Positions 6,412 to 59,895 of a stretch of DNA of 64,000 bases are shown piece after piece. Both the position numbers and the translations under genes were made by a program. The notes under the pieces were generated by a model, which did no database searches, had not been told where the DNA came from, and worked only from the letters and a program-made list of their open reading frames with translations. Position 1 is the first letter of the stretch; each line of letters starts with the position of its first letter. The DNA is from an uncultured Candidatus Saccharibacteria bacterium (GTDB taxonomy: Bacteria > Patescibacteriota > Saccharimonadia > Saccharimonadales > Saccharimonadaceae). Where the stretch lies: NCBI GenBank assembly GCA_947166405.1, contig CAMVEA010000002.1, forward strand, positions 164 through 64,163, given 5' to 3'.

Positions 6412-6579
6412 AGAATCATTATACCCTTAATTGACTTATTCGTCAAAACGTGCTTATAGCACAATAATTAAACGATAAAAGCCACGAATAATCTCACCCA
6501 TATAAACTTAGCCCAAGAGCCATTTCCAAGCCAAACATAATACCAATCATCTCACTTAAACGTTTCTTCATCATAATCG

Positions 6580-6672
6580 AAACTTGACTTGGAATTCACT
6601 TCCAAGTCAAGTTTAATACTGGTTTTCTTTCTTGGTCTTTCTTTTCCCGAAAAGAAAGACCAGATTTCAAAA
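6580..6672 (-). repeat. Double-hairpin dispersed element, copy 1
   Basis: 15-bp perfect stem 6580-6594/6600-6614 with loop TTCAC, 18-nt linker, 13-bp perfect stem 6633-6645/6650-6662 with loop CCCG. Homologous to 18083-18170 and 59408-59486. Confidence 0.85.
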
Positions 6673-6705
6673 AACGCCGAGATAGCGTATTTTCAACAAC
6701 TTAAA

Positions 6706-6809
6706 TTTCTTAGCAAAAATTCGCTAGATTGGTGTTTTCTCCTTACGAAGCGCGTCTAATGGACGAGCGAGTAAGGAAAAACGCCGAGATAGCGAATTTT
6801 TGCAAGAAA
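6706..6809. other. ~100-nt imperfect long hairpin directly after the rpsJ stop
   Basis: Nested pairs GCAAAAATTCGCTA/TAGCGAATTTTTGC, GGTGTTTT/AAAACGCC, TCCTTAC/GTAAGGA and CGTC/GACG. The 18-bp AAAAACGCCGAGATAGCG is duplicated at 6670-6687 and 6777-6794. Confidence 0.75.
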
Positions 6810-6810
6810 T

Positions 6811-7137
6811 TTACATGCGAATCTCAGCATCTACCCCAGCCGGGAGCGACAAATTCTGCAAACTCTCAATCGTCTTAGGTGTTGCATTCGAAATATCAAT
6901 CAAACGTTTATGAACTTTCATCTCAAACGCTTCACCACCAGTTTTATACACGTGTGGCGACTTCACGACTGTATAAGTAGACCTTTTTGTAGGAAGTGGA
7001 ATCGGCCCACTAATAGATGCACCCGTCCTAATTGCAGTATCGACAATCTGCCGCGCACTCTGATCAATTACCCTGTGGTCATACGCCTTCAACTTAATAC
7101 GTATTTTTAGCCCCTCATCTTTTTTTGCTTCTGTCAT
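6811..7137 (-). CDS. rpsJ: 30S ribosomal protein S10, stand-alone
   Basis: [15 protein letters not shown]...GPIPLPT...KSPHVYK...[11 protein letters not shown]. Confidence 0.98.
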
Positions 7138-17993: not shown

Positions 17994-18082
17994 ATATTAC
18001 ACCCATTATATCATACTATTTATGTTTTAATGCAAAATTCGTTTTTTCACTCACCCACCTAGAGAATAACAAATAATCATCA

Positions 18083-18170
18083 AAATCCGAATTGGAATTC
18101 ACTTCCAATTCGGATTTCATCCTGGTTTCTTTTGTTGGGGTTTTCTTTTCCGAAAGAAAACCCCAGATTA
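18083..18170 (-). repeat. Double-hairpin dispersed element, copy 2
   Basis: AAATCCGAATTGGAA-TTCAC-TTCCAATTCGGATTT (18083-18117), 18-nt linker, TGGGGTTTTCTTT-TCCG-AAAGAAAACCCCA (18136-18165). Starts 5 nt after the CHAP gene stop. Confidence 0.85.
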
Positions 18171-19337
18171 TCAAAAATGTATATAATTATAATTCCCCGC
18201 CTCACCCGCCGAAATCTTACGTGCGCCAAAATCACCAACATGATAAGAACCAGTCAGCTGCCCAGTCGACCAATAATTGTTATATTCTGTCACATTAATC
18301 GAGCCGTCAGCTTCTACACTCTCCACCCAGAAGACATGTCCATAAGGACCGTCGTTCATCTGCCCAATCGTACCAGGAGCAGGAATGTTATCAACTCTAT
18401 AGCCAGCCGCCCTCGCACCATCATCCCATGAATAAGCGTTACCCCACGAAGCAATTACACCATACGCCTCATAAGCTTTCCAACCAGCATAGCTCACACA
18501 TTCACACACATATCCACCAATTTTACGCCATCCATTTGCAGTCTCGACATAAGTCAAATAAGCATCTTGCCTATCAGGACAATCTCCTTGCCAAGGATAA
18601 GTATTGGCTCCATTATATACACCACCCTGGTAATATGATTGGTGGGATTCCTGATATTCTCGAATCGCCGCCTGCTGCGCCAACCGTGCCTCCTTCGCCT
18701 CCTCAGCGTACGCTTCTGCATCATTTTCGTATTTAGCGACCAATTCTTCTTGCTCAGCCTTCTTCGCCGTCAAGGCATCCATTGTTACTTGCTGCTGTGA
18801 CAGTAAATCCTCCACAGCCTCTTTATCTGCTTCAAGCTGCGCTTTTGTTTCCTTCACTTTGATTGCAGAAGCACTAATCTGTTCCTTCACAACCTCCTCA
18901 CGCGCAGCCCTTTCAGCCAAATCCGAAATCGAACTCGCTCCTGCAAGCACTCGAATTGGCTCAGCATCCGTCTCAAAGTGCATATTCACCAATAATTCCG
19001 CCAAAGCATCTTTTTCCTGAGCCAGTTTTTTTTCGGCAGCCAATATCTCCGCCTTCAATGCCTTAATCTGAGCTTCAGTATCAGCAATCTCAGCTTCTTT
19101 TCCCGCAATATCAACCTTGAGCTCATTTACTTTATTCTGATATGCATTAGCAGAATGCTCTGCTACTGCCGCATTTTTATTCGCTTCCTCTTCCTTAGCT
19201 ACTGCCTCCATACATTTATCACTCTTCTTGCAAATCTCAGAAATAGCATTCACCTTACTCATAGGCAATAACCCAATTACAATCATAATAGTTAAGACAA
19301 CATTTAATATATTTCTTTTAGTTTTCATTTTATCCAT
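18171..19337 (-). CDS. Coiled-coil + CHAP-domain peptidoglycan hydrolase (PcsB/CwlO-like FtsEX partner)
   Basis: Signal peptide, long coiled coil, ECVSYAGW, WGNAYSW, YGHVFWVE, EYN. Follows ftsX. Confidence 0.9.
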   Translation of the reverse strand: MDKMKTKRNILNVVLTIMIVIGLLPMSKVNAISEICKKSDKCMEAVAKEEEANKNAAVAEHSANAYQNKVNELKVDIAGKEAEIADTEAQIKALKAEILAAEKKLAQEKDALAELLVNMHFETDAEPIRVLAGASSISDLAERAAREEVVKEQISASAIKVKETKAQLEADKEAVEDLLSQQQVTMDALTAKKAEQEELVAKYENDAEAYAEEAKEARLAQQAAIREYQESHQSYYQGGVYNGANTYPWQGDCPDRQDAYLTYVETANGWRKIGGYVCECVSYAGWKAYEAYGVIASWGNAYSWDDGARAAGYRVDNIPAPGTIGQMNDGPYGHVFWVESVEADGSINVTEYNNYWSTGQLTGSYHVGDFGARKISAGEAGNYNYIHF

Positions 19338-40463: not shown

Positions 40464-40492
40464 ATTATATCATATATCATCAAAAAAGTAAA
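40464..40492 (-). promoter_or_regulatory. Dedicated promoter upstream of rplF
   Basis: TTTACT-17 nt-TATAAT with extended -10 TG, about 30 nt upstream of the rplF start; AAGGA SD. Confidence 0.7.
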
Positions 40493-56187: not shown

Positions 56188-57459
56188 TTATTTAAAACAC
56201 TCATGTATTAATTTAATTATAACATCTTGCTCTTCTGCTGTCATTTTATTATCCGACGGCAAGCATAAACCTCTCGCGAAAATATCCATCCCCACATCCG
56301 TACATTTAGTAGCAATATAAGCATTACTCTTCGCACGACTAGAACCCCCGCATGTAATAAAATCATTGTTACGAAATATCGGCTGCATGTGCATCGGTTT
56401 CCAAATCGGACGTCCTTCGGCATTGTATTTAGCCAAGGTATCCAATATTTCAGTCGGACAACTTTTGCCGGATTCGCTAATATATAACACATCCTGTTCC
56501 CCACGCACCTGTTTACACATCGCATCTTTGTCAATAATCATACAAGAAAGCCAATAATTCGGTTCAGAATTATCAACATCGTAAGGATTCATCTTTACCG
56601 GTAAATCATTCAAACCTTCCTTATATCTTTCATATATTGCCTTCTTCTGTTCAATATGTTCTTCTAAGTGAGGGATTTGTCCACGCACGACACCAGCAAT
56701 CACATTACTCATTCGATAGTTATAGCCCACCTCTTCATGCTGATACCAAGGAGCATTCTCACGTGCCTGCGTAGACCATTTACGAGCCTTATTAGCGCCC
56801 TCCAAATCATCGGTCAAGAGCATCCCACCAGCGGAACCAGTAATAATCTTATTGCCATTAAACGAAATGCAATTATAGTCACCAAACATACCAGTCTGTC
56901 GCCCCTTATAGCTTGCACCTAACGATTCAGCTGCATCCTCCACAATCAAAGCATTATGCCTCTTAGCAATCCCTCTAATCTCATCAATCTTAGCCGGCGT
57001 GCCATACAAATGCGCCACCACAACCAAACGCACATCAGGATAAATCTCGAAAGCCTTTTCTAGAGCCTCCGGATCCATATTCCAAGTATCGTATTCCGTA
57101 TCGATAAACACTAGCTCACCACCTTCATATGTAATAGGATTAGCAGTAGCAGCAAAAGTTACATCACTACAAAACACCCTATGTCCTTCAAGACTCCCAT
57201 GACCAGCTCGCGGTTTACCATAAAGCTTTTCGCCAGCCATCCTAACGGCTAGGTGTAATGCTGCAGTACCAGAGCTCAATGCCACTGTATTTTTAATACC
57301 AATCTTTTTAGCAATCTGCTCTTCCACCTTGTCAATGTTTTCGCCAACAGTAGACATCCAATTAGTCTCATAAGCGCTTGTCACATACTTTATCTCTTCA
57401 CCGTGCATAGTCGGACTAGCCAACCATATCTTTTTTTCAAATGGTTTTATTCTATTCAT
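56188..57459 (-). CDS. DegT-family sugar aminotransferase (PglE/EpsN-like)
   Basis: SSGTAALH, VEDAAES, SFNGNKIIT, GYNYRMSN. Confidence 0.93.
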   Translation of the reverse strand: MNRIKPFEKKIWLASPTMHGEEIKYVTSAYETNWMSTVGENIDKVEEQIAKKIGIKNTVALSSGTAALHLAVRMAGEKLYGKPRAGHGSLEGHRVFCSDVTFAATANPITYEGGELVFIDTEYDTWNMDPEALEKAFEIYPDVRLVVVAHLYGTPAKIDEIRGIAKRHNALIVEDAAESLGASYKGRQTGMFGDYNCISFNGNKIITGSAGGMLLTDDLEGANKARKWSTQARENAPWYQHEEVGYNYRMSNVIAGVVRGQIPHLEEHIEQKKAIYERYKEGLNDLPVKMNPYDVDNSEPNYWLSCMIIDKDAMCKQVRGEQDVLYISESGKSCPTEILDTLAKYNAEGRPIWKPMHMQPIFRNNDFITCGGSSRAKSNAYIATKCTDVGMDIFARGLCLPSDNKMTAEEQDVIIKLIHECFK

Positions 57460-59324
57460 TTTGCTCCTTTCCCCACCTTATACGTCCCCACAATCTTCGC
57501 CGTCAGTGGTTTAATCTCATCCGAATTATGTTTCGCCTCAGCAATCAAAGCGTCCAAATCATCCAAAAAGCTATCACTAATCTTAATCGGCCTACCAATA
57601 TGTATTAGTTTATTCGGCGTTTCCTTCAGTCCCTCCTCATCCATCAGCATTTCTTCATATAGTTTTTCTCCAGGCCTCAACCCAGTTATCTTAATCTTAA
57701 TATCCTTTCCAGGCTCAAGTCCTTTATATCTAATAATCTTCTTTGCGAGTTCGTAGATTTTCACCGGCTTCCCCATATCTAGCACAAATATCTCTCCGCC
57801 CTGCGCATAAACCGAAGCTTGCAAAATCAAACTCACCGCCTCTGGGATAGTCATAAAATACCTTGTAATGTCCTTATGCGTAACGGTCACTGGCCCACCA
57901 TTTTCTATCTGTTTAATAAACAACGGAATCACCGAGCCATTCGACCCAAGCACATTACCAAACCTCACCGCAACATATTGCGTCTCGGATATTTTGTCAT
58001 AAGTTTGAATTATCATTTCGCAAATCCGCTTTGACGCACCCATAATGTTTGTCGGACGTACAGCCTTATCAGTACTCACTAGCACAAACTTACTAACTTT
58101 ATACTTATCAGCGAGCTTCACAACATTAAGAGTACCCAAGCAATTATTCTTAATGGCTTCGTTCGGAGACACTTCCATCAATGGGACATGTTTATGTGCC
58201 GCAGCATGATATACTTGCTCAGGACGAAATTTCAAAAAAACCTTTTCGAGTCGCGGATAATCCCGCACCGAACCAATAATCGTCTCCAACCTCAAATCAG
58301 GAAAACTTCGATACAATTCCTGTTGGATATCATAAGCATTATTCTCATAAATATCAAAAATGATAAGCAACTTCGGTCTAGCTTTAGCTATCTGACGGCA
58401 AAGCTCCGACCCGATACTCCCACCACCACCAGTCACTAGGATAGTCTTATCTGTCAAATTGCTCGTTATTTCAATATCATTTACCACAATCTCATCTCTG
58501 CCCAAGAAATCCTGATATCTGATCGGACGAATCTGAGCAATCGTACTCGTAGCATCTTGATTCATTCTCAAGTATATAGACGGGAGAATCTTAATCTCAG
58601 CCTTAGTCTTCTGACACTCAGTAACTATCTTCTCTATTGTCTCTTTAGTTGCAGATGGAATAGCGATGATTATTTCTTTTACTTGATATTTATCTGCCGC
58701 ATTACTAATCATATGACGACCACCGACCACCTTTATCCCACGAATCCTCGAGCCAGCCTTAGACTTATTGTCATCTATAATGCAAACCACGCGCGATGAA
58801 CTATAATCCTTATTACGGTTCATTTCATCAATCAACATCCTTGCAGCTTCACCACCACCAATAATCATTATATTGTTGACAGCATTACGCCCAGCGACCA
58901 TTTTGAAAAAAGTACGACCAATCCGATACGAATAACGCACCCCACAAGTCAAAAAGATCAGCAAAGCCGGAAAAACAAACCAAAAGCTACGCGGGCTAGG
59001 CAATAGCATTAAATGCTTATATACGTACATCAGACAATCTGTAGCAATGCATGCTAGCACAATCGAAATCAATTCCGGAATAGAAGCATATCGCCAAATC
59101 GAAGTATACAACCCAGCCATCACAAATATCAAAATCATAATTGCACAATCTATCGGTAAGTAATCTGTCACCGTGCTTAAATAATTGGCCGGAATGTCAT
59201 GAAAATCAAACCTCATCCAAAGAGTTAAATATGAGGACAAGATAAAAGACAGAATATCAAGAAACACCAGAACAACTATTCTGGAAATCTTCCTTCCGGT
59301 TATGCCTCGCATTTTGTTTTTCAT
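57456..59324 (-). CDS. Membrane-bound UDP-GlcNAc 4,6-dehydratase (CapD/PglF/EpsC-like)
   Basis: 4 N-terminal TMs, TGGGGSIGSELCRQ, HAAAHKHVP, STDKAV, VRFGNVLGS, GLRPGEKL. Start MKNKM at 59324. Confidence 0.94.
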   Translation of the reverse strand: MKNKMRGITGRKISRIVVLVFLDILSFILSSYLTLWMRFDFHDIPANYLSTVTDYLPIDCAIMILIFVMAGLYTSIWRYASIPELISIVLACIATDCLMYVYKHLMLLPSPRSFWFVFPALLIFLTCGVRYSYRIGRTFFKMVAGRNAVNNIMIIGGGEAARMLIDEMNRNKDYSSSRVVCIIDDNKSKAGSRIRGIKVVGGRHMISNAADKYQVKEIIIAIPSATKETIEKIVTECQKTKAEIKILPSIYLRMNQDATSTIAQIRPIRYQDFLGRDEIVVNDIEITSNLTDKTILVTGGGGSIGSELCRQIAKARPKLLIIFDIYENNAYDIQQELYRSFPDLRLETIIGSVRDYPRLEKVFLKFRPEQVYHAAAHKHVPLMEVSPNEAIKNNCLGTLNVVKLADKYKVSKFVLVSTDKAVRPTNIMGASKRICEMIIQTYDKISETQYVAVRFGNVLGSNGSVIPLFIKQIENGGPVTVTHKDITRYFMTIPEAVSLILQASVYAQGGEIFVLDMGKPVKIYELAKKIIRYKGLEPGKDIKIKITGLRPGEKLYEEMLMDEEGLKETPNKLIHIGRPIKISDSFLDDLDALIAEAKHNSDEIKPLTAKIVGTYKVGKGAK

Positions 59325-59407
59325 AATTTCTTCAATATATTGTACAACATTTTTACAAAAAAATAAAGCATAAATAAAATGGCCTTGTTGCATAGAATAC
59401 CGAACAA

Positions 59408-59486
59408 AAAATGAATTGGAATACACTCCCAATTCATTTTCCTTACTAGTCATTTCTGCAATACTCTTTTCCTTCGAAAAGAGTAT
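59408..59486 (-). repeat. Double-hairpin dispersed element, copy 3 (diverged); probably also terminates the rpsH transcript
   Basis: AAAATGAATTGGAA-TACAC-TCCCAATTCATTTT (59408-59440), 20-nt linker containing TACTAGT..TTTCT, ATACTCTTTTC-CTTC-GAAAAGAGTAT (59461-59486). Starts 7 nt after the rpsH stop. Confidence 0.75.
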
Positions 59487-59493
59487 AAGCCAA

Positions 59494-59895
59494 TTACCAA
59501 ACTTTCACAAGTATCTCGCCACCCAAGCGATTCTTCTTCGCCTCGCGACCAGTCATCAAACCTTTGGATGTAGAAATGATAACCATGCCACGTCCAGATT
59601 TCACCGTTGGAATCTCGTCCGCCGCTGAATATACACGACGACCGGGCTTCGATACCTTGGTAATTTCATTTACTTTAGCAATAGTGCCAGGCTCATTGAT
59701 TACTACATGAAGCATTCCACGCGGCTTTCCGTCGACTACTTCATACGAAGCAATATAGCCATTTTTCGCCAAGACTTCCACCACTTTACATTTCAGCTTA
59801 GAAGTCGGAACGAGGATTTCATTCTTACCAACTAATACCGCATTACGAATTCGCGTAATTAAGTCAGCAATTTGATCAGTAGATTGTAATGACAT
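59494..59895 (-). CDS. rpsH: 30S ribosomal protein S8
   Basis: DQIADLITRIRNA, VSKPGRRVY, STSKGLMT. Confidence 0.98.
   Translation of the reverse strand: MSLQSTDQIADLITRIRNAVLVGKNEILVPTSKLKCKVVEVLAKNGYIASYEVVDGKPRGMLHVVINEPGTIAKVNEITKVSKPGRRVYSAADEIPTVKSGRGMVIISTSKGLMTGREAKKNRLGGEILVKVW

Follow-up and report, generated by a model that had tools for sequence, protein, structure and literature searches.

What does a two-hairpin element do at the point where a ribosomal protein operon breaks off and a capsule-type locus begins? We asked this of a 64,000-nucleotide (nt) stretch of contig CAMVEA010000002.1 from an uncultured Candidatus Saccharibacteria bacterium (hereafter, the window), where a minus-strand S10/spc run of ribosomal protein genes, rplB to rpsH (63995 down to 59494), ends and the element starts just past the stop codon of rpsH. 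A terminator after rpsH would be ordinary by itself. We found that this element combines the anatomy of an intrinsic terminator with the layout of a class II intrastrand-triplex motif, and we consider it probable that the whole is a conserved, vertically maintained gene-end module of Nanosyncoccus-type gut Saccharibacteria in which an intrinsic terminator is joined to a part of the potential intrastrand triplex (PIT) type. The mirror-repeat relation between the first hairpin and the linker that follows it is new here; it was missed in the preliminary description of this DNA, which was made from the sequence alone.

The final gene of the run ahead of the break, rpsH (59494..59895, minus strand), is an open reading frame (ORF) for ribosomal protein S8, and an identical protein matches Pfam Ribosomal_S8. 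Its TAA stop codon (59496-59494) is followed by a 7-nt spacer, TTGGCTT (59493-59487), and then by hairpin 1, ATACTCTTTTC-GAAG-GAAAAGAGTAT (59461..59486, minus), which has a pyrimidine-rich 5' arm, a purine-rich 3' arm, 11 perfect pairs and a folding energy of -13.1 kcal/mol. A purine-rich linker of 20 nt, TGCAGAAATGACTAGTAAGG (59441..59460, minus), leads into hairpin 2, AAAATGAATTGGGA-GTGTA-TTCCAATTCATTTT (59408..59440, minus), with 14 pairs, one of them G.U (-16.7 kcal/mol with flanks, where the stem is 14-16 bp). The apical part of hairpin 2, TTGGRAGTGWATTCCAA, is conserved across the element family. At and just past its 3' arm is a run of six T (U in RNA; 59406..59411, minus) that would serve as the release site of the proposed terminator. 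The two hairpins, the linker and the 7-nt distance from the rpsH stop codon are all where the preliminary description had placed them, and it was also right about the single stem defect: the sole non-Watson-Crick pair of the 14-bp stem, G59428 with T59420, is a G.U in the minus-strand RNA and an A.C on the other strand. For each hairpin sequence, 100 shuffles of the window gave 0 chance matches. The 101-nt RNA of the minus strand has a folding energy of -34.2 kcal/mol (z = -6.6; none of 200 shuffles did as well), which is better by 9 kcal/mol than the plus strand (-24.9 kcal/mol), and the rpsH copy of the element is identical in five contigs.

This copy had been described as the third in the window. 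When we scored a covariance model at every window position, we found exactly three full-length matches, all on the minus strand: copy 1 (6567..6675; 97.7 bits) lies about 140 nt downstream of rpsJ (6811-7137), copy 2 (18070..18178; 105.9 bits) directly follows the stop codon of a gene for a CHAP-domain hydrolase (18171-19337), and copy 3 (59394..59501; 85 bits) is the one after rpsH. Identity between the window copies is about 72%, and copies are generally 70-75% identical. The first set of copies came from a pattern made of the conserved hairpin-2 apex and GAAAAG, with the linker left unconstrained; it found 18 further copies in Saccharibacteria genomes and 7 chance matches elsewhere, and the covariance model brought the family to 29 aligned copies from about 22 Nanosyncoccus-type Saccharibacteria species. 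Over both stems, the proportion of paired cells in this alignment is 94.1%, and both partners have changed in 24 of 29 pairs, whereas none of 500 shuffles was as good and slid alignments were 40-69% paired. Both-side changes occur in 10 of 14 pairs of the hairpin 1 helix and in 14 of 15 pairs of the hairpin 2 helix, where 98.8% of cells are paired. In contrast to the varying stems, the hairpin-2 apex (UUGGAAGUGAAUUCCAA) hardly changes, and neither does the linker (AGCAAAAGAAACCAGU); the family consensus 3' end is TTTTTGAT. Orthologous copies are retained across four species (L008, L015, L017 and L019; L numbers are our handles for the loci compared). In L062 and L070, hairpin 1 and the linker are found with a quite different hairpin 2 that has a CAGGCACAUG-type apex. 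At Rfam 15 gathering or E-value thresholds we found no family in the window, and only chance-level matches for L009, L012 and one copy of the wider family described below.

Evidence for a second component comes from the linker. Its purine tract mirrors the 3' arm of hairpin 1, and we found that the two change together. Mirror identity between purine arm and linker is 92.5%, as compared to 71.9 ± 2.8% when linkers were dealt to other sequences (maximum 82.3% in 2000 shuffles), 70.4% when the tract was read as a direct repeat and 46-59% when it was slid by 1-2 nt. The joint changes are visible in single column pairs of the alignment: columns 33/56 have AA in 21 copies and GG in 6, columns 34/55 AA in 20 and GG in 6, columns 36/53 GG in 16 and AA in 11, columns 37/52 AA in 21 and GG in 5, and columns 39/50 AA in 22 and GG in 5. 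Five arm haplotypes (AAAGAAAA, AAAAGAAA, AAAAGAAG, GGAAAAGA and GGAGAAAA) each come with their own mirror in the linker. In window copies 1 and 2, the mirror holds at 9 of 9 aligned positions; copy 2 has AAAGAAAAC in the aligned columns of arm and linker, and in copy 1 the mirror extends to 10 nt (AAAAGAAAGA and AGAAAGAAAA). By comparison, the mirror of the copy after rpsH has decayed to 6 of 8 both in the window and in L089, with the window haplotype GGAAAAGA set against AGTAAAGA; here the position of the mirrored purine "third strand" is AGAAATGA (59450..59457, minus).

A mirror relation of this kind is not obtainable from Watson-Crick pairing, and only triple-helix or parallel-strand pairing predicts a mirror rule. 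On the sense strand, the mirror fits an antiparallel purine-motif third strand (A.A-U and G.G-C triples); on the complementary strand, it fits a parallel pyrimidine-motif third strand (U.A-U and C+.G-C; PMC4666352 and PMC13541005). The covariation suggests that the third tract is under selection to remain a mirror of the purine arm. The same layout defines class II PIT elements, which consist of a pyrimidine block, a loop of 1-6 nt, a complementary purine block, a second loop of 1-6 nt and a mirrored purine block, with blocks of at least 6-8 nt and at most one mismatch (PMC4666352). Copies 1 and 2 and most family members conform to this block rule, and in most copies the second loop is partly paired with the 5' flank. 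With 2 mismatches in 8 positions, including one T, the rpsH copy falls outside the rule and is a somewhat degenerate family member. Because its mirror has decayed, the terminator part is probably what matters there. A closing helix between the 5' flank and CYAG after the linker was rejected: it seemed convincing in window copies 1 and 2, L022 and L105, but its mean (4.55) did not exceed that of shuffles (4.62). Pseudoknot pairing between the hairpin-1 loop and the tail reaches 2-3 bp at most in the Saccharibacteria copies and shows no covariation.

We then compared where the copies lie. An upstream ORF could be identified for 21 copies. Each of these has the orientation of its ORF, and the majority start no more than 7 nt past the stop codon. 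The upstream genes are unrelated to one another (rpsH, rpsJ, groEL, hsp20, murA, DUF2207-like, pilin-like, transporter and CHAP hydrolase genes), and one copy follows a tRNA gene. A convergent gene lies downstream of 8 of 23 copies, and in the window promoter-like sequences stand between the copies and the next gene. This placement is the behavior of a 3'-end element and not of a 5' leader. A riboswitch or attenuator in a 5' leader was rejected for the same two reasons, the 8 of 23 copies that face a convergent gene and the promoter-like sites before the next gene, and also because no alternative pairing with hairpin 2 was found. RNA repeats of a type III toxin-antitoxin system, which stand in tandem (35-45 nt each) ahead of a terminator and an endoribonuclease toxin gene, were rejected as well, since copies are single apart from one tandem pair in L062 and the genes downstream are diverse. 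That pair lies after rpsH at L062 2318-2542: its first copy has a CAGGCACATG-type hairpin-2 apex, as in L070, and in its second copy the pyrimidine arm pairs with the linker and not with the purine arm.

Hairpin 2 has the anatomy expected of an intrinsic terminator, with a stable stem-loop and a U-tract on the transcribed strand, downstream of and co-oriented with rpsH. As in intrinsic terminators, it stands between an A-run and a U-run, just past stop codons and between convergent genes, and it takes the same position as the plain terminators of related genomes. In contrast to such terminators, its stem is long and AU-rich with an apical sequence conserved between genes and species, the unit has a further, obligatory hairpin upstream and a purine linker that is conserved, and one group of copies is without a clean U-run. 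We judge it fairly likely that hairpin 2 and the U-run terminate the rplB-to-rpsH transcript, which would end before the capD-like gene that opens the capsule-type locus; the A-run 5' of hairpin 2 would make the terminator potentially bidirectional. The proposal that the distal hairpin and U-tract terminate the rpsH transcript thus stands as far as its anatomy and its match to the position of the relatives' terminators go, and termination itself is what we infer from them.

Hairpin 1 and the purine linker would act on the sense strand, either in the 3' untranslated region (UTR) of the mRNA or in the displaced non-template DNA. We favor the sense strand because an element placed after the stop codon and before the terminator must be in the mRNA, because wobbles in cleanly delimited stems are about 7 G.U to 1 A.C on that strand, and because L034 retains hairpin 1 via several U.G pairs. 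Selection on the RNA had been argued from the one G.U pair of the rpsH copy. The conclusion gains from the compensatory stem changes and the ratio of about 7:1; the original argument is a single pair, and the wobble trend in the family is weak. Tentatively, hairpin 1 and the mirrored tract may form an antiparallel purine-motif helix of eight triples on the sense strand that would be kept for termination or for protection of the 3' end. For hairpin 1 and the linker as such, we propose a role in strengthening 3'-end formation or stability, directly upstream of the AU-rich and weak stem of the terminator. If it acts as RNA, a triple-helical or otherwise compact structure could stabilize the 3' end; if it acts as DNA, a triplex or an R-loop-prone non-template stretch could slow the polymerase. 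Any triplex folding, like its effect, is an inference.

Several observations weigh against a module of terminator and triplex. The only RNA-labelled sequencing run with the region (12% of words) consists of a few low-depth contigs, none of them over the element. Hairpin 2 is AU-rich, with 3 G-C pairs and 1 G.U in the rpsH copy, and a terminator scan that asks for a minimum of 3 G-C pairs did not list it. The orthologous copies of L008, L015, L017 and L019 are without a clean U-run after hairpin 2, and their loop is still conserved, so termination alone does not explain the module; nor would a terminator role account for the conserved loop, GGAAGUGAAUUCC. Purine-motif triplexes are reported not to form in RNA, whereas pyrimidine-motif ones do, and the PIT elements of Escherichia coli showed no terminator activity (PMC4666352). 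The mirror rule is broken in L034 and in one L062 copy, where the linker is a better pairing partner for the pyrimidine arm than the purine arm is. Finally, every copy is on the G-rich strand as judged by GC skew, so that orientation with respect to transcription and to replication are inseparable.

If the module is what we think it probably is, a two-part unit conserved in sequence is maintained behind unrelated and mostly highly expressed genes in Saccharibacteria, a group with tiny genomes in which few regulatory RNAs are known. No function has been assigned to the intrastrand-triplex motifs known from bacteria since 2000, and a sense-locked family beside a terminator gives a testable handle on them. 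The evidence for the mirror is covariation between species and not motif counting alone. Should the triplex reading be true, this would be the first natural triple helix of its type backed by three-strand covariation, and it would give a function to intrastrand-triplex motifs, long unexplained, which in their A/T-rich form occur in bacteria, archaea and giant-virus contigs. Motifs of the class II purine type were reportedly described by Hoyne and Maher in 2000, and they are treated by Holder et al. in 2015 (PMC4666352).

To place the motif among known triplex-type elements, we compared it with two groups. The BoxC/PIT and TMECO elements of E. coli are intergenic, show no strand bias, lacked promoter and terminator activity in earlier tests, and are associated with variability of the genome around them; triplex folding in vitro was shown for the G/C-rich TMECO only, and A/T-rich triplex motifs were treated as less significant (PMC4666352). 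The element resembles PIT, BoxC and TMECO in the order of its blocks, in comparable block (8-10 nt) and loop lengths, and in being intergenic, multicopy and conserved far beyond chance. TMECO, in contrast, is G/C-rich (CCCTCNCCC...GGGNGAGGG...) and has no strand bias with respect to genes, whereas the element is A/U-rich and sense-locked right after stop codons, is fused to a terminator-like hairpin and has an arm and a third tract that covary between species. The triple helices of MALAT1 and PAN, formed by the element for nuclear expression (ENE), are likewise 3'-terminal, and in them U-rich and A-rich hairpin strands meet a third, A-rich tract (PMC13541005); protection of the 3' end is proposed for both. 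An ENE, however, has two U-rich strands that clamp one A-rich tract (U.A-U, parallel third strand), whereas the element has one U-rich and two purine strands, for which only the antiparallel purine motif fits the sense strand. ENEs are known from eukaryotes and eukaryotic viruses, and no example from a bacterial 3' UTR is listed in the review (PMC13541005). Literature searches for Saccharibacteria terminators or for the motif's sequence words found nothing relevant.

The mirror motif itself is not confined to Saccharibacteria. The word CTTTTCTTT, 2-6 nt, AAAGAAAAG, 4-9 nt, AAAAGAAA occurs at at least 120 genome loci, against a rough chance expectation of about 0.002, and a variant has CTTTCTTTT/AAAAGAAAG/AAAGAAAA; the word is absent from the text of PMC4666352. 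Its hosts include Clostridia, Selenomonas, Prevotella, Stenotrophomonas, Cupriavidus, Nitrospirota and Campylobacterales, as well as DPANN and methanogen-related archaea and giant-virus contigs. A covarying extension of 3-5 bp is found at the base of the hairpin, and tandem arrays are found in L215, L260 and L306, the last with 7 copies about 365 nt apart. We found no conserved neighbor gene in the 120 loci and no gene-orientation bias outside Saccharibacteria. Terminator-like hairpins favor the top strand by only 14 to 6, and wobbles lean to the opposite strand (10 to 2, several cases being orthologous to each other). An H-type pseudoknot between the hairpin-1 loop and the tail has a mean helix of 3.15 bp against 2.90 ± 0.07 bp in shuffles, a weak excess with some clear cases, for example GGCGGC with CCGC. 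A genomic direct-repeat control (119 loci) was not used, since its matches were mostly the reversed motif with extra purine-arm repeats; the others were hairpins with an extra A-U pair and a purine arm that is itself mirror-symmetric. The wider motif may be heterogeneous. In Selenomonadales, a copy at L142 2177-2377 lies about 50 nt from a flavin mononucleotide (FMN) riboswitch, which is on the strand opposite to the pattern; on the riboswitch strand a long GC-rich hairpin precedes the motif, and the T-run of that hairpin is the pyrimidine third-strand tract. The Cupriavidus copy had no BLAST match among plasmids.

The wider motif also bears on the alternative that fares best, in which the element is a pair of plain tandem RNA hairpins, a 3' stabilizer and a terminator, with no interaction of a third strand, and the mirror arises incidentally from purine/pyrimidine sequence of low complexity or from common ancestry. 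Mirror identity is cheap in such sequence, as the majority tract AAAGAAAA and the mirror AAAAGAAA differ by a one-position shift of a G; one haplotype makes up 13 of the 29 copies, and relatedness inflates the mirror statistics; and the two copies that break the rule, together with an rpsH copy that is identical in five contigs despite its decayed mirror, are what this explanation would lead us to expect. Low complexity does not readily account, however, for five arm haplotypes that each have their own mirror, among them GGAGAAAA with AAAAGAGG, which are neither a direct repeat nor pairable with the pyrimidine arm, nor for shuffled, slid and direct-repeat controls that all fall far below the mirror identity. 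In the viral contigs, two hairpin variants are found, at 11 and 18 loci, each with the mirrored tract that belongs to it, and each swapped combination at 0 independent loci; many of these copies come from contigs of one giant-virus metagenome-assembled genome. We regard plain tandem hairpins as unlikely.

A module that stands behind many unrelated genes need have no special tie to the capsule-type locus, and the preliminary description had proposed such a tie: the element would insulate this locus from the ribosomal operon and make its insertion tolerable. To see how the junction looks elsewhere, we compared the rpsH regions of 80 related Saccharibacteria species, with rpsH homologues 77-89% identical. 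In none of the 80 relatives is rplF directly next to rpsH. The gap between the two genes is 71 nt in L075, 155-538 nt in 4 loci and about 1.9-2.5 kb in 7; in 68 loci it exceeds the 3 kb examined, and its contents are many and different. A hairpin with a T-run follows the rpsH stop codon in at least 63 of the 80 relatives by a crude automated rule, and in nearly all by eye; a stricter first automated count had missed obvious cases. The typical relative has a plain GC-rich hairpin with a T-run, and L075 has only a promoter. In the window, a promoter-like site lies before rplF (40464..40492, minus: TTTACT, 14 nt, TGaTATAAT, with a hexamer spacing of 17 nt), and similar promoters are found ahead of rplF in L075, L049 and L061, so that rplF, in the window and in relatives, appears by consensus match to have its own extended -10 promoter. 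We found no terminator after cpsB at the far junction of the locus. Because rplF is never next to rpsH and has its own promoter, the rpsH|rplF junction is best read as an old, general transcription-unit boundary and insertion hotspot in this clade, which matters for the use of ribosomal-operon synteny in candidate-phyla genomes.

The two-hairpin element follows rpsH in 6 of 81 species (the window, L089, L105, L034, L062 and L070), which in a tree of rplE-rpsN-rpsH are interspersed with species that lack it. It is one of several interchangeable putative terminators at the junction and was not acquired for the capsule insertion. Neither the idea that the break is special to the insertion nor that of a tolerance-giving insulator is supported in the form proposed, given a break in all relatives, a promoter of its own for rplF and an element that stands behind many unrelated genes and a tRNA gene. 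When the element was sought in genomes without the insertion, L034 was found to have it after rpsH and to have no capsule locus; this is in part the outcome that would refute the insulator idea. Only a promoter and an 80-aa membrane ORF lie there between the element and rplF, which follows 538 nt later. Long palindromic inserts resembling miniature inverted-repeat transposable elements (MITEs) are also present after rpsH (first 170 nt) in three families, each with a central terminator-like hairpin: one in L031, L036, L048 and L060, one in L053 and L108, and one in L043 and L095.

A hotspot of this kind raises the possibility that the element is a small mobile or recombinogenic DNA repeat (MITE-like, PIT-like or similar to repetitive extragenic palindromic sequences, REP) that promotes rearrangement and helps to make the junction a hotspot, with its terminator look incidental. 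It lies exactly at a hypervariable junction, its carriers after rpsH are scattered in the tree, MITE-like long palindromes sit at the same spot in other species, in E. coli, intergenic G/C-rich triplex motifs mark loci with more rearrangement than is seen at control sites (PMC4666352), and the A/T-rich motif is found in all domains of life, outside Saccharibacteria without a gene-orientation bias. We consider it improbable all the same. An element present in 6 of 81 species cannot cause a break present in 81 of 81, strict sense orientation directly after stop codons is unexpected for a DNA-only repeat, and the orthologous copies of L008, L015, L017 and L019 have persisted. Copies are also not near-identical recent ones but differ by compensatory changes, and the two hairpins are unrelated in sequence, which leaves no terminal inverted repeats; on these grounds (with the window copies about 72% identical) we rejected the MITE/REP class of repeats. 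Like REP sequences and bacterial interspersed mosaic elements (BIMEs), the element is a short structured gene-end repeat with conserved sequence on a hairpin; unlike them, it is conserved in its loop and linker, its stems covary, its copies have diverged, and no associated transposase or uptake role is evident. Pairs of uptake sequences in Neisseria and the TRIT terminator motif of mycobacteria are likewise repeated structured sequences at gene ends.

Least probable of all, with very little in our view to recommend it over a terminator joined to a triplex part, is a protein- or RNA-binding element of the 3' UTR or a small RNA derived from it, with the loop GGAAGUGAAUUCC and the linker AGCAAAAGAAACCAGU as recognition sites and termination secondary: loop and linker are near-invariant while stems vary, the group without a clean U-run keeps the loop, and the element follows highly expressed genes (groEL, hsp20, ribosomal protein and pilin-like genes), but the different hairpin 2 of L062 and L070 shows the parts to be separable and no Rfam family matches.

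The capsule-type (cps) locus beyond the junction is about 19 kb long, from 59318 down to 40519, and is followed by rplF, rplR, rpsE and rplO (40434 down to 38221). It contains genes for a capD-like protein, a DegT aminotransferase, a sugar transferase, glycosyltransferases, a Wzy-like protein, a flippase and an epimerase, and further for a UDP-glucose dehydrogenase-like protein, an LCP protein, Wzz plus a P-loop kinase, and CpsB. Its center (46-56 kb) has 29-37% GC, as compared to 40-46% around it. On a metagenome contig, L001, rpsH and the junction are identical and the central glycosyltransferase genes are different. Different central genes at an identical junction indicate a variable locus of the capsule or O-antigen type with conserved flanks.

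The first gene of the locus is the capD-like polysaccharide biosynthesis gene (57456..59318, minus; Pfam Polysacc_synt_2, E = 4.7e-121), whose start in public annotations overlaps the element. The public calls (665 aa in L001 and 660 aa in L002) start at an ATG at 59453, in the element linker, and run through hairpin 2 and the promoter region (59319-59453). The alignments of homologues in L041 and L057 begin near 59318, and we prefer the start at 59318 because these alignments fit it. Thus, the true start is probably the ATG at 59318, and the first 45 called residues are probably not real.

At the other end of the window, rpsJ lies about 52 kb away from the rplB-to-rpsH run. Between its stop codon and element copy 1 (6676-6810) is a long imperfect inverted repeat, AAATTCGCTATCTCGGCGTTTTTCCTTAC ... 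GTAAGGAGAAAACACCAATCTAGCGAATTT, and a third, partial copy of its arm, ATACGCTATCTCGGCGTTTTTT, stands directly before copy 1.

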